Of a stretch of DNA of 45,880 bases, positions 5,124 through 8,586 are shown piece by piece. Under the pieces are notes generated by a model. It worked only from the letters and a program-made list of their open reading frames with translations, had not been told where the DNA came from and did no database searches. The position numbers were made by a program, and so were the translations under genes. Within the stretch, counting starts at the first letter, position 1, and the number at the start of each line of letters is the position of its first letter. The DNA comes from a virus (Duplodnaviria; Heunggongvirae; Uroviricota; Caudoviricetes), in IMG/VR virus record IMGVR_UViG_2870484749_000003, positions 1 to 45,880 of that record; one strand, given 5' to 3'.

Positions 5124-5603
5124 TCACTGGTTGCCTCCTTTGCGAAGCTCAGCGGCGAAGGCTACTGCGTGATCATGATGTTCAAGTGTGTATGCACACT
5201 CCGCAAACATCTCCACGCCCTGCGCCCGCACTTCCGCCAGGAAAGCGTCGGTAGCTGGCGTTTCGCTGTGGTGCAGGGCATCATTAATAATCATCGCAGC
5301 AACTCCGGCCTGCCCTGCATCCGTGACCGACACATGCTCAAGAGTTACAGCCATTGCATGTTTCAGCCCCGCATTCTCCGCCGCCAGCGCCGAAAACTTC
5401 TCGTGTGCCAACTTAACAGCCGCATCAGCCTGCTTAATTGACTCAATCGCTTTCTGTTGGTCTTCGGCCAGCGCCGCGCACTTGGCCTCAGCTTCAGCAA
5501 ATTTACGCACCAGGTACTCAGCGTTTGTTTCGTTCACTTTCAGATCTCGCGGTACACATTTTCCGCGAAGAAACCCTTCCATTTCGAAAACATTCATGCG
5601 CAT
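5124..5603 (-). CDS. hypothetical phage protein
   Basis: 159 aa ORF in operon context; no recognisable motif. Confidence 0.5.
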   Translation of the reverse strand: MRMNVFEMEGFLRGKCVPRDLKVNETNAEYLVRKFAEAEAKCAALAEDQQKAIESIKQADAAVKLAHEKFSALAAENAGLKHAMAVTLEHVSVTDAGQAGVAAMIINDALHHSETPATDAFLAEVRAQGVEMFAECAYTLEHHDHAVAFAAELRKGGNQ

Positions 5604-6130
5604 TTGCGTAACCCCGATAACTCGTTAAAACGTTCCATAAACATCCCGTAGGCATGGCCTGGTGACAGTGGAATAACTTTGAACATCTCTGTCGCCGGGA
5701 TACCTTCCAGTACAGGCCAGAAAGAACCATCATCAAGCCCGAGATCGCTGCGTTCGGTTGCCAGCATAATGAGATCGGCATATTTCACTGGCGTGCTCAT
5801 AACAGGAGGTAACCCGTATTTCTCACGGATTACGGCGTCTATTTTTTCTTCCATCCGTTTATAGTCAGGAAGAAGTCGTTTCAGTGGTGCGGGGATGTCC
5901 TGGCAATATGCTTCTGTTGCATCATGCATTAAAGCTTCAAAAGCAAATTCCTGTGGCACCAGCTGGCTGCAAAGCACCGCATGTTGGGCGACACTGTAGA
6001 AGTGTGAAAGATGTCCTGCAAAGCGACAGATATTTGAAAGGGAAATCGCGATATCGTTAATAACGATGTCGTCTTTATTTATCCTGTCATAATAAAAATG
6101 CTTCCCGGAAAAAGTTTTAATAAATGACAT
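5594..6130 (-). CDS. HD-domain phosphohydrolase (YfdR-like 5'-deoxynucleotidase family)
   Basis: HD-type motifs (VAQHAV, ALMHDATEAY); start taken at MSFIKTF with a GGAG RBS. Confidence 0.65.
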   Translation of the reverse strand: MSFIKTFSGKHFYYDRINKDDIVINDIAISLSNICRFAGHLSHFYSVAQHAVLCSQLVPQEFAFEALMHDATEAYCQDIPAPLKRLLPDYKRMEEKIDAVIREKYGLPPVMSTPVKYADLIMLATERSDLGLDDGSFWPVLEGIPATEMFKVIPLSPGHAYGMFMERFNELSGLRKCA

Positions 6131-6254
6131 TTTGTTCTCCACGTATATGCGCTGCACCGCGCTGAATTCGGGTAAAAGGAAGCCCTCACCGTCCGGCGAT
6201 TATTGAGTCAATTACATTTCCATAAATGCCCCCGTAGGGGCGGTTAGTTTCTCC

Positions 6255-6358
6255 ACAAAACAGAGAAGAACACCTGCGGTGGCAGCCGCCCGGATGGATT
6301 GGATTATGAGCCCGTCGTCCGGTGATGCCCTTCTCTGTTTTGTAAAAAGAGCGGTACC
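6255..6358 (-). promoter_or_regulatory. candidate nut/put-like RNA element: boxA-like CGCTCTTTTTACAA followed by a large hairpin closed by a perfect 14-bp inverted repeat
   Basis: On the minus strand, GCTCTTTTTACAA resembles boxA (GCTCTTTAACAA); arms acaaaacagagaag (6255-6268) and cttctctgttttgt (6330-6343) enclose 61 nt; lies in the ORF-free leader of the early-left operon. Confidence 0.3.
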
Positions 6359-6542
6359 AGCCGGAAGCAAGTGTACAAACTGGTACCGCCAAAGCAGTGG
6401 CTGTTGTGGTGACCGGTGCTGATCTCCGGCTTGCGGTTATTTCAGACTCTCACGGGCGTTTAATTGCCCCGCCGAACAGCTCTTTTCCGCAATAGCTGCA
6501 ATGTCTTTCGCGCATCAGCCTGCGCATTCACCACAACGCTGA

Positions 6543-6651
6543 GAGCATTGCCGGTGTCCGAATCGAACGGACCTTTTCCCTGCCCAACCCTCCCATCTGA
6601 ATGGGACTGTCTGGAATTGAACCAGCACTTATGCCTTGCTCGTCAATGCTC
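6543..6651 (-). ncRNA. candidate structured RNA (~109 nt) closed by an 8-bp stem, with three internal hairpins, two carrying tRNA T-loop-like sequences
   Basis: Closing stem gagcattg/caatgctc; minus-strand hairpins CUGG-UUCAAUU-CCAG, CCCAU-UCAG-AUGGG and GUCCG-UUCGAUU-CGGAC; no canonical cloverleaf could be drawn. Confidence 0.25.
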
Positions 6652-6891
6652 TCATCGTTGCGTCCTGGTCTCTTCCCAAGCGTCAAACCGAATCGCCACG
6701 CTGGTTAGGCGTCTTATCAGCATCCTCATTGACTTGCACATTCCGGCTACCTGGTTTGTTTGCCCGAGCAAGGAGTGGATTATCCCCTTTAACGTCCCCA
6801 GACCGCTAACGACGCATGTGCCATACGCCGTGTTACAACCAAATTTTGTTAGTACCTTGTTTGTTTGTCTGGAAAGAAAGATAAAATGAAG

Positions 6892-6930
6892 TTGCGCATT
6901 ATGCAAGTGTTTTTGTTGCGAGATATGCAA
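6892..6930. promoter_or_regulatory. candidate left operator sites
   Basis: TTGCGCATTATGCAA (6892-6906) and TTGCGAGATATGCAA (6916-6930) share the architecture of TTGCGCGTTAAGCAA at the cI/cro intergenic region. Confidence 0.45.
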
Positions 6931-6937
6931 TTTAAAG

Positions 6938-6966
6938 GGTAATGAAAAGCCACCTTTGGGTGGCTA
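6938..6966 (-). terminator. rho-independent terminator downstream of the cI-like gene
   Basis: agccacc-tttg-ggtggct hairpin followed on the minus strand by tttcatt. Confidence 0.55.
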
Positions 6967-6985
6967 ATTGATGAGGAGGTAAGGG

Positions 6986-7678
6986 TTAATTGTGTCGCTT
7001 AAGGGTTTGTGACTGGCTGATTAAGACCTTTCCAAAGACCATAAACCGGTGTTCATTTTCGCTGGTAATTCCCCATTCACGGTAAATCTGGTTATCAGAA
7101 ATCACCAGTAGTTTGTCAGGTATCATTTGCAGTCGTTTGACATAAATTTTATCATCAAAACCAAATACATAGATACCATCTCCATCAAACTGATTGATAC
7201 TGACATCAACGAAGATGAGATCTCCTGGCTCAATGGTTGGACACATACTGTCCCCACGAACGTTGATAACTTTAATGTGATTGGCTGGCCGTCCGCCAAA
7301 CATCGATACAGCATTATCAGTTCTGTATTCAATGGCATGAATCACATCAATGACATCACCGCCCTGGATAAGGCCATTTCCCGCACTGGCACTGACATCC
7401 AGCATTTCAATACGGAATACATCCTTCACCTGCGCAACATCCTCACTAATACTGTTTTTACATACAGTATTACTTTTGACGTCTGAGGTAAAGAGATCAG
7501 CAATATCAACACCTAAGCTCCTGGCAATATTACTCAGGGCTTGTTCAGTGAATTGTTTCTGCTTACCTGTTTCCAGGCGTGAGATATTCGCCGCATCCAC
7601 TCCTATTGCTTCAGCGAGATCGGCGATTTTCATGTTCTTCGCCTGGCGAAGTTGTCTGACTCGGTTTCCTATGTTCAT
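6986..7678 (-). CDS. CI-like prophage repressor (HTH plus S24 LexA-like autopeptidase domain)
   Basis: N-terminal HTH (IADLAEAIGVDAANISRLETG); C-terminal GDSM serine and KR lysine motifs; possible Ala-Gly cleavage site in SASAGNG; divergent from the cro-like gene. Confidence 0.9.
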   Translation of the reverse strand: MNIGNRVRQLRQAKNMKIADLAEAIGVDAANISRLETGKQKQFTEQALSNIARSLGVDIADLFTSDVKSNTVCKNSISEDVAQVKDVFRIEMLDVSASAGNGLIQGGDVIDVIHAIEYRTDNAVSMFGGRPANHIKVINVRGDSMCPTIEPGDLIFVDVSINQFDGDGIYVFGFDDKIYVKRLQMIPDKLLVISDNQIYREWGITSENEHRFMVFGKVLISQSQTLKRHN

Positions 7679-7775: not shown

Positions 7776-8036
7776 ATGCAATCACCATTACGGAATGTGC
7801 GTAAGGCGCACGGATTTACTTTGCAGCATGTTGCTGCTGGCGTTCAGGTCAATCCAGCGACGCTGAGTCGTATTGAAAGACTGGAACAAATTCCATCTAT
7901 CGATCTTGCAGAACGTCTGGCCAATTTTTTTAAGGGTGAAATCAGCGAAATGCAGATTCTTTATCCGGCACGTTTTCAATCTAGCCAAAACCAGAATGGG
8001 TTTAAACCACAGGAACAGGAGGTAAGCCGTGGGTAA
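7776..8036 (+). CDS. Cro-like HTH (XRE family) regulator
   Basis: 86 aa, HTH FTLQHVAAGVQVNPATLSRIE, divergent from the repressor. Confidence 0.8.
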   Translation: MQSPLRNVRKAHGFTLQHVAAGVQVNPATLSRIERLEQIPSIDLAERLANFFKGEISEMQILYPARFQSSQNQNGFKPQEQEVSRG

Positions 8037-8586
8037 TCATCACTGGAAAGTGGAAAAACAGCCTGAGTGGTACGTGAAAGCTGTCAGAAAAACTATCGCG
8101 GCGTTGCCGGGGGGTTACGCTGAAGCTGCTGAGTGGCTGGATGTAACAGAGAACGCATTATTTAACCGCCTTCGTGCCGATGGCGATCAGATTTTCCCGC
8201 TGGGATGGGCAATGATTTTACAACGTGCTGGTGGCACTCACTTCATTGCCGACGCTGTGGCGCAGTCTGCAAATGGCGTCTTTGTGTCTCTTCCTGACGT
8301 CGAGGATGTGGACAATGCCGATATTAACCAGCGTTTACTGGAAGTCATTGAACAGATCGGCAGTTATTCAAAACAGATTCGTTCGGCAATCGAAGACGGT
8401 GTAGTGGAACCGCATGAGAAGACAGCAATTAACGACGAGCTGTACCTCTCAATTTCGAAGCTGCAGGAGCATGCAGCACTTGTCTACAAAATTTTTTGCG
8501 TTTCAGAAAGTAATGACGCCCGCGAGTGTGCAGCTCCGGGCGTCGTGGCGTCGATTGCTTCTGGTTGTGGAGAAACTAACGCATGA
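8029..8586 (+). CDS. hypothetical early-right protein (possibly a CII-like regulator)
   Basis: 185 aa ORF overlapping the cro-like stop; product assignment is a guess from position. Confidence 0.5.

Follow-up and report, generated by a model that had tools for sequence, protein, structure and literature searches.

What fills the roughly 750 nt between the candidate left operators and the first early-left gene of a lambdoid prophage in which no N-like gene is found? The stretch in question, positions 6131–6885, lies in a window of 45,880 nt (the whole stretch of DNA analysed, IMG/VR record IMGVR_UViG_2870484749_000003), which is a lambdoid prophage of the SfV/mEp460/cdtI/Stx2a_1447 type, and a preliminary description had read it as a structured leader free of open reading frames (ORFs). 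The best explanation, to which we give a probability of about 70%, is that it holds, at the head of the early-left operon, an array of non-coding RNA modules, transcribed and structured, that ends at an attenuating terminator. The region is non-coding, contains RNA structures and a terminator, is widely distributed and coincides with small RNA (sRNA) ends published for a near-identical prophage. Its most conserved element, module A (6661–6835, minus strand), a structured RNA of about 175 nt, had escaped the preliminary description, as had the tRNA-like modules that follow it.

Module A rests on a covariance model (R1), on covariation and on three alignments (A1–A3). Comparison among relatives, as the preliminary description had advised, revealed compensatory changes in its helices and in a pseudoknot. 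Compensatory changes, together with the invariant CCAGGUAGCCGGAAUGUGCAAG, were present in the first alignment of five sequences, and in an alignment of 43 sequences the four helices and the pseudoknot were paired in 97.0% of cells, compared with 28–45% in controls whose partners had been slid by 1–3 columns. Thirteen pairs changed on both sides (95 cells), and the covariation score was matched by none of 500 shuffles. Helix P1 (6830–6826/6814–6810) carries the invariant loop UAUGGCACAUG, and P2 (6801–6798/6754–6751) closes a variable hairpin domain and is followed by the invariant junction GUAGCCGGAAUGUGCAAG (6750–6733). The loop of P4 (6712–6709/6701–6698) has the sequence CACC in the family and pairs with a downstream GGUG to form the pseudoknot; in the window the partners are AACC and GGUU (6706–6703 with 6689–6686). 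The last helix, P5 (6680–6676/6668–6664), has the loop GAAGAGA. Loop UAUGGCACAUG and junction CCGGAAUGUGCAAG were nearly invariant even among loci retrieved with a different anchor.

Two further pairings were considered in module A. RNAalifold paired AGCGG with GUAGCC, which we rejected because the variants GUAACC, ACAACC and AUCACC are uncompensated. A candidate pairing of GCACAU with AUGUGC is invariant on both sides, even without pattern forcing, and therefore covariation neither supports nor refutes it. Model R1 scored the window copy at 138.5 bits (E 1e-39) and found no second copy in the window. The Rfam scan and folding checks proposed in the preliminary description gave a divided outcome: the folds are stable, whereas no Rfam family matches, with no hit at the gathering threshold of Rfam 15 anywhere in the window and only chance-level noise in E-value mode across 5900–7100. 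Module A is thus new to Rfam and to the records examined, while sRNA and terminator further along the array are known or ordinary. No paper describing it was found in a literature search that was incomplete, so a prior description is possible.

The preliminary description was right that the stretch is free of convincing ORFs, as only short or implausible ones occur between the repressor gene and the HD-domain gene, and none of those listed in 6131–6885 matched Pfam. The largest, a plus-strand ORF of 141 aa oriented against early transcription, is alone in touching a PHROG, one without an assigned function, and its codon positions could be compared with a single full-length homologue only. Relatives are mosaic within these ORFs, and of 102 phage records just 4 extend over 80% of the stretch. 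For the core of module A, 154 distinct copies were compared; their lengths (144–176 nt) differ by non-multiples of three, and the share of copies in which any one frame stays open never exceeds 46%. The absence of an N-like gene was likewise borne out, since PHROGs places the seven early-left ORFs in phosphatase, methyltransferase, exonuclease, excisionase or unknown families, none of them an N family.

Leftward transcription of this highly structured stretch, also put forward at the outset, is supported. The candidate operators TTGCG..N..GCAA (6892–6930) resemble the repeats between the repressor and cro genes, and they overlap the likely leftward promoter PL (6878–6906, minus strand), with a −35 hexamer TTGCAT at 6906–6901, a 17-nt spacer and a −10 hexamer TATCTT at 6883–6878. 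PL was assigned by its position and operators because its hexamers fall under the 9/12 threshold of our consensus scan. Transcription is expected to start near 6870, which would place the start of module A, judged by the position of helix P1, about 40 nt downstream.

The other end of the array is anchored by published data. An RNA of 193 nt, sRNA-17, was defined by 5′/3′ rapid amplification of cDNA ends (RACE) and Northern blotting in the mEp460-like prophage of Escherichia coli K1 strain RS218 (PMC7719688, Front Microbiol 2020), where it was described as an expressed, ArcA-controlled, trans-acting sRNA with its own promoter, whose deletion has reported phenotypes. Placed on the window through the published oligonucleotides (full-length, RACE and Northern), it maps without mismatches to the minus strand at 6538–6345, that is, 194 nt against the 193 reported; the suggestion of a regulatory sRNA locus is therefore supported. 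This interval is module C (6345–6538, minus strand), which folds into a cloverleaf-like shape with an acceptor-like stem of 8–9 bp, at the base of which the 5′ end of sRNA-17 lies, a D-like hairpin (GCGCA/UGCGC), an oversized central arm and a T-like hairpin (GCCGG/CCGGU) with a 9-nt loop. Across 36 variants, the D-like stem is fully paired (5/5) through nine sequences, while the central part can be as short as 34 nt or as long as 104 nt, so that module C can be described as a conserved tRNA-like frame around a variable insert. In epsilon15-like phages, its slot is filled by tRNA-Arg. Module C was also considered as a canonical tRNA and rejected, given its 9-nt T-like loop, oversized central arm and lack of a call by a tRNA finder. 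ARAGORN found no tRNA gene in the window, and thus the T-arm-like strings in it are not intact tRNAs; an Rfam tRNA match was likewise lacking in the window even at E values up to 10. The module C of one relative (L017, minus strand) combines a long variable arm with a regular arm of the anticodon type, whose loop is CUUUUAA (anticodon UUU), and there too ARAGORN makes no call.

The intrinsic terminator that closes the array (6344–6389, minus strand) consists of GCGGUACCAG (6389–6380), a 19-nt loop, CUGGUACCGC (6360–6351) and the U-tract UCUUUUU (6350–6344). Its G+C-rich stem of 10–13 bp (ΔG −21.2 kcal/mol, z −4.3) is followed immediately by the U-tract, in which the mapped 3′ end of sRNA-17 falls, at 6345 (in RS218, identical to the window over every primer), so RNA ends formed in vivo agree with the sequence features of an intrinsic terminator. 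The consensus scan missed it because of its loop limit of 8 nt. The motif CGCYCUUUUUACA was found 300–600 nt past module A in 84 of 203 loci, and in 49 of these 84 the fourth base is C, a departure from the boxA consensus that would allow pairing with the opposing G and lengthen the stem.

These assignments bear on how sRNA-17 is understood. The "promoter fragment" of PMC7719688 is the DNA of modules A and B, and that paper omits the tRNA-like shape, the terminator, the variable central insert and the structured nature of the "promoter fragment". If its primer table is correct, the quantitative reverse transcription PCR primers listed there reach from 6844 to 6392 and so imply co-transcription. 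Deletion of 6395–6512 raised yfdR and yfdP, directly downstream (PMC7719688), and the yfdR primers map onto the HD-domain gene of the window (5594–6130); this rise could reflect read-through from the inserted cassette. It thus seems that the virulence-linked sRNA-17 is the 3′ module of an array in a phage leader, tRNA-shaped and bounded by a terminator, and that its reported promoter is itself a structured RNA; on such a re-reading, the deletion and complementation phenotypes need a different interpretation.

Module B (6535–6657, minus strand) lies between modules A and C and is formed by a long helix of CAACGAUGAGAGCAUUG (6657–6641) with CAAUGCUCUCAGCGUUG (6551–6535), an interrupted helix of 15 bp that encloses three hairpins (ΔG −47.9, z −3.4). 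In EPP-1, the helix (GAGAGUACUG/CAGUGCUCUC) shows one compensatory and one wobble change, and in TL-2011b and SPC32N its homologue closes directly against tRNA-Arg. Two of the enclosed hairpins are of the T-loop type (CUGG-UUCAAUU-CCAG at 6625–6611 and GUCCG-UUCGAUU-CGGAC at 6572–6556, minus strand), so that a single closing helix holds two canonical T-loops, UUCAAUU and UUCGAUU, about 40 nt from each other. In the T-box and RNase P, pairs of T-loops grip the tRNA elbow.

Beyond the terminator, the 14-bp inverted repeat noted in the preliminary description is present at 6255–6268/6330–6343 and closes module D (6255–6343, minus strand), an 89-nt hairpin of about 21 pairs (ΔG −45.3 kcal/mol, z −6.4) whose stability was reached by none of 200 shuffles. 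Its stem is kept in F1055 through G-C to A-U compensation, the counterpart in EPP-1 has 22 pairs, and in both the homologue lies directly 5′ of a different first gene, rdgC. A perfect stem two helical turns long may be a target for RNase III, and the cut would part the array from the mRNA, by analogy with the hairpin that RNase III processes in the N leader of lambda. The interior of module D contains a GCGG/CCGC hairpin and, at 6277–6289 (minus strand), GGGCUCAUAAUCC, shaped like the anticodon arm of tRNA-Met/Ile2 with the 7-nt loop CUCAUAA; the corresponding string in F1055 (L010, around 2375–2390) is GGGCUCAUUACCC.

Combining these elements, transcription would start near 6870 at PL or, in lysogens, enter by read-through of the repressor terminator, which is possible because the repressor gene has the same orientation. 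Module A (6835–6661), the T-loop module (6657–6535) and the tRNA-shaped RNA (6538–6345) would then be made in this order, and many transcripts would stop at the 6389–6344 terminator. Cleavage at the base of the acceptor-like stem (6538), presumably by RNase P or RNase E, would free sRNA-17 and a 5′ RNA of about 330 nt carrying module A, whereas the long hairpin (6343–6255), probably cut by RNase III, and the HD-domain, methyltransferase, exonuclease and excisionase genes would be reached only by polymerases that read through. The consensus scan found no promoter-like site on the minus strand from 6345 to 6130, and since the early-left genes would be supplied by read-through past 6345, the terminator would act as an attenuator.

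Several points weigh against this account. The PL hexamers are weak matches to the consensus, the sRNA-17 data come from RS218 and not from this genome, and PMC7719688 attributes the 5′ end of sRNA-17 to initiation at a promoter, for which it takes the DNA of modules A and B. The survey of terminators downstream of module A described below was lenient, with 113 of 186 loci scoring on the opposite strand too.

Module A extends far beyond this prophage. It was detected in 1374 of 5426 complete E. coli genomes, without annotation in any record examined among the E. coli matches listed, and in more than 200 viral contigs, of which two pattern scans each recovered at least 120 loci. The region 6655–6840 is 100% identical to that of E. 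coli AR_0014, and among species-representative genomes there were 24 matches, nearly all in Enterobacteriaceae or close relatives. Many temperate phages of E. coli, Shigella, Salmonella and Klebsiella have no N gene, and yet they must cross long untranslated leaders and terminators to express their excision and recombination genes. At the very start of these operons stands a strongly conserved, covarying RNA that about one in four complete E. coli genomes carries, with Shiga toxin phages among its hosts, and module A offers a concrete object for antitermination, processing or trans-acting roles.

The contexts of module A fall into a few recurrent types. In about 97 of 208 loci it lies downstream of a CI-like repressor gene, as in the window, in about 65 it is found between the portal and terminase genes of epsilon15-like phages, and a further group is P1-like. 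BLAST showed pieces of the leader recurring in unrelated phages, often adjoining tRNA genes: between trnI and ban in phage P1, directly 5′ of tRNA-Arg(UCU) in the epsilon15-like TL-2011b and SPN1S/SPC32N, and directly 3′ of tRNA-Arg in Klebsiella phage GZ7. A tRNA gene adjoins module A on the same strand in 44 loci, and about 160 of the 208 loci have no tRNA nearby. The unit in TL-2011b opens with a TTGACA-type promoter and a leader. Behind module A, the closing helix runs right up to the 5′ end of tRNA-Arg; two hairpins come next, the first of them with CCGCCCUUUUUACA at its end, then a strong terminator and finally a small co-oriented gene. The epsilon15-like cassette (sigma-70 promoter, module A, closing helix, tRNA-Arg and terminator) is thus self-contained. 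In phage P1, module A is located in the long, non-coding-rich leader of the C1-repressed ban operon, past a dicF-like region and three tRNAs. Of 174 loci, 97 have a sigma-70-like promoter no more than 250 nt upstream of module A and on its strand, compared with 17 for the other strand; the median distance from the −10 hexamer to module A is 54 nt. A terminator-like site up to 1 kb downstream was detected in 152 of 186 loci, usually between +300 and +500. Eight loci contain a short hairpin and a boxA or near-boxA about 25 nt past the last helix of module A; five of them have the exact GCUCUUUAACAA, and none was found on the opposite strand. In one of the phages bearing such a boxA (L090), no N-like gene was seen.

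Among the roles that module A might have, one in transcription read-through is our leading guess. It may act in cis on the transcribing polymerase, as a processive antitermination or anti-Rho RNA resembling put or the rrn boxB-boxA signals, and so allow passage through about 750 nt of untranslated RNA and the 6345 terminator without N. Such a role is compatible with the array explanation, and both may be true together, but we hold it only tentatively, at less than even odds. In about half of the loci, module A is the first conserved element transcribed from repressor-controlled early promoters, the phages that carry it encode no N-like protein, and terminators stand between it and the co-oriented genes in lambdoid and epsilon15-like settings. 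Its loops and junctions hardly vary, which would suit binding to a conserved host machine, and the eight loci with a following boxA, at least one of them in a phage without an N-like gene, point in the same direction. The put sites, too, are often directly 5′ of a tRNA-like gene, and mEp460, which carries module A, is named like the mEp collection, whose phages were isolated for their Nus dependence (PMC11893012). On the other hand, sRNA-17 accumulates with its 3′ end at the terminator, so termination there must be efficient, at least in lysogens, which counts against antitermination by module A. The window has a single copy, with none for the rightward operon, and in phage P1 module A is 2.3 kb from the promoter. 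A stronger proposal, which we consider doubtful, is that module A represents a new class of nascent RNA that reprograms polymerase, alone or with NusB/E at the following boxA, and is the missing early antitermination or anti-Rho device of N-less Enterobacteriaceae phages; if so, SfV/mEp460-like lambdoids, phage P1 and epsilon15-like phages would share a second solution, structurally unrelated to HK022 put.

The put RNAs of HK022 and HK639, which are cis-acting antiterminators, share the setting of module A: a repressor-controlled early promoter lies a short way upstream, the lambdoid phage has no N protein, and terminators follow further on. In HK022, put causes terminator read-through that depends on the zinc-binding domain of the beta-prime subunit. 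Helix P1 of the window and its 3′ flank (ACGGCG...CAUGCGUCGUUAGCG) are strikingly like HK022 putL, and homology was suggested by the shared ACGGCG...CAUGCGUCGNNAGCG, the common features being a G+C-rich first stem, which as CGGCG/CGUCG in the window equals put stem I, and a loop ending in CAUG. At the family level, however, homology was rejected. What the window shares with put is only CGGCG...CAUGCGUCG, and the stem varies among copies of module A (CGGCA/UGCCG, CGCUG/CAGCG), just as AGCG of HK022 lies in a variable put stem; because the sequence of helix P1 varies, the likeness shrinks to a G+C-rich stem of 5 bp and CAUG. The blocks GUCGAACGGCGCGAC..AAACCAUGCGUCGG and stem II (GGCGGG...CGGCAAU), invariant in the put alignment, are absent from module A, as is the 5′ GUCG/CGAC duplex of put. 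Furthermore, put is an RNA of about 70 nt with two stems, against about 175 nt with four helices and a pseudoknot, and it occurs as putL and putR whereas module A has only one copy per genome. A covariance model of put (R2), built from 14 putL sequences without putR, recovered HK022 putL (95.6 bits) and the untrained putR (30.7 bits, E 1.6e-6), but found no match at 6661–6835, in phage P1 or in TL-2011b at E values up to 10 with filters off, and model R1 in turn had no match in HK022 or HK639. As R2 recovers putR and not module A, the latter is not a member of the put family. The RNA-based or host factor-dependent antitermination of the preliminary description may thus still apply to 6835–6661, although not by way of put, while for the boxA-like string and hairpin to which it had been attached it is not supported. 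Many put RNAs (HK639, L132, 33694–33763 minus, where the putL-like RNA is annotated; L322–L326 and others) have a short tRNA-like gene 15–400 nt downstream, tRNA-Ile(GAU) by ARAGORN, an adjacency that mirrors that of module A. At another locus (L318), put stem I (GUCGAACGGCGCGAC..AAACCAUGCGUCGG) is followed by the consensus boxA CCGCUCUUUAACAAUCUGG without stem II, resembling a hybrid of both antitermination signals.

Other known leaders offer partial parallels. The eight relatives of the window with a short hairpin and a boxA or near-boxA, five of them with the exact UGCUCUUUAACAA, recall the rrn boxB-boxA leaders, which also head long untranslated transcripts including tRNAs; the window itself differs in having no consensus boxA, and boxC was not recognised. 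C4 of phages P1 and P7, CI of P4 and DicF of the dicB operon are likewise small stable RNAs from the leader of a repressor-controlled operon, and it is in such a leader that module A of phage P1 resides, but the RNAs of the window match none of them by sequence or Rfam, and no antisense target was found in the window. The C4 and CI RNAs are RNase P-dependent.

A second role for module A, which we also regard as doubtful, is that of a stable RNA acting in trans, for example by binding a host protein or RNA, or keeping it sequestered, at an early stage of infection; it would be freed by cleavage at the 5′ end of the tRNA or tRNA-like module and without effect on its own polymerase. The stand-alone epsilon15-like cassette with its own promoter and terminators would suit such an RNA, as would the closing helix ending exactly at the tRNA 5′ end, the cut site of RNase P, the documented stability of the neighbouring module C and the unrelated genes downstream of module A in different contexts. 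However, no RNA species covering module A has been reported, a search of the window for antisense targets of its invariant segments gave a best match of 10 nt, at chance level, inside cro, and several loci have a gene or a boxA directly 3′ of module A and no processing site.

It is improbable that the region is a decayed tRNA island, in which leftovers of phage tRNAs and spacers are kept by linkage and have no function. It does contain fragments resembling T-arms and anticodon arms and a tRNA-shaped module where no tRNA is called, and homologous pieces flank intact tRNAs in phage P1, SPN1S/SPC32N, TL-2011b and Klebsiella phage GZ7. Yet four helices and a pseudoknot with compensatory changes, along with near-invariant loops, persist in phages that otherwise have little in common, module A is retained without a nearby tRNA in most loci (about 160 of 208), and sRNA-17 is expressed, with deletion phenotypes reported (PMC7719688).

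Improbable as well is a nut-like site built on the boxA-like string and hairpin of the preliminary description, in which GCUCUUUUUACAA (6352–6340) would be a working boxA that recruits NusB/NusE, with the next hairpin as boxB, and antitermination would proceed without N. The boxA-like string GCTCTTTTTACAA is indeed present at 6352–6340 on the minus strand, with a hairpin directly 3′ of it; CGCUCUUU (6353–6346) fits the boxA core, (C/U)GCUCUUUA, as well as lambda's own CGCUCUUA does, and leaders of related phages hold exact and near-consensus copies of boxA. Its reading as a working boxA is nevertheless poorly supported, as the string consists of the last stem bases and the U-tract of the terminator: its CGC is paired in a hairpin of −21 kcal/mol, and because the published 3′ end falls inside UCUUUUU, it is the tail of a terminator that works in vivo. 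In 49 of the 84 relatives with the motif, U at position 4 is replaced by C, and the resulting CGCCC is off the boxA consensus and would extend the stem. As a boxB, the following element was rejected, since a branched hairpin of 89 nt and about 21 bp is unlike a 5-bp stem with a purine-rich pentaloop, and none of the seven early-left ORFs encodes an N-like protein to bind it. As in lambda, with nutL and the hairpin that RNase III cuts in the N leader, an RNA signal near the promoter precedes a large hairpin and then the first gene, and a CGCUCUU-type string is followed by a hairpin; the region differs in lacking the N protein and a boxB-type pentaloop hairpin and in that its string is a terminator tail.

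Least likely of all, and very improbable, is a small protein encoded here after all, either one of the listed ORFs, the larger of which have no Pfam match, with no conserved frame across module A, or the 25-aa arginine-rich peptide MRRLMRERHCSYCGKELFGGAIKRP (around 6527–6450, minus strand), whose start recalls N-type RNA-binding motifs but which was rejected as a gene as it is not conserved in relatives (the ATG is lost in L017, the sequence diverges after six residues in EPP-1 and L026 has replacement changes) and sits within the conserved D-like hairpin of sRNA-17.

Genes flank the array on both sides. The CI-like repressor (6986–7678, minus strand) has helix-turn-helix and S24 peptidase domains according to Pfam, and the consensus scan placed a terminator hairpin 3′ of its gene, upstream of the operators and PL and on the same strand as the array (6948–6965). 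Cro-like (7776–8036) and CII-like (8029–8586) proteins are encoded on the plus strand; the start of the cro mRNA (7791–7800) holds CGGAAUGUGC, identical to 10 nt of the invariant junction of module A, and about one such match in the window is expected by chance. The early-left operon (minus strand) begins with the gene at 5594–6130 (ATG at 6130), which encodes a YfdR-like HD-domain deoxyribonucleoside 5′-monophosphate phosphatase (phrog_318, E 3.5e-108; its YfdR-like Pfam match scores below the curated cut-off), and continues with proteins of unknown function, a DNA methyltransferase, an exonuclease and an excisionase. Between module D and this gene is a small hairpin, GCCCC-UACG-GGGGC (6228–6241, minus strand; ΔG −12, z −2.8), with a weak U-rich tail; the consensus scan listed its plus-strand mirror as terminator-like. 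The window has neither isrK nor C4 antisense RNA, unlike phage cdtI, in which both, above the Rfam threshold, lie upstream of the antirepressor gene (L003, 5553–5741).

Further conserved elements accompany module A elsewhere. In many non-lambdoid contexts (L133, L138, L027 and L149), it is preceded by another conserved hairpin domain, AAGCGCACU ... AGUGCGCUUCCAGGUGUGA, which is absent from the window and is also seen downstream of module A in L015, L043 and L078. At three loci (L034, L090 and L011), a conserved palindrome, CTTGGTTGTGTGAGAACTCCAAGAATACCAC, is found upstream of module A or B, beside a small divergent zinc-ribbon-like ORF (MDEVKFSCPECSS...), and may be the operator and promoter of a different immunity type. 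In phage P1 (AF234172, L223, 2973–3542; also L006, 295–335 and 550–583), the plp and upl ORFs oppose two copies of the conserved start of module C (GCAAUGCUCUCAGCGUUGUGGUGAAUGCGCAGGCUGAUGCGC), directly 3′ of tRNA-Asn and tRNA-Thr, and plp and upl may have been miscalled over a non-coding RNA array.

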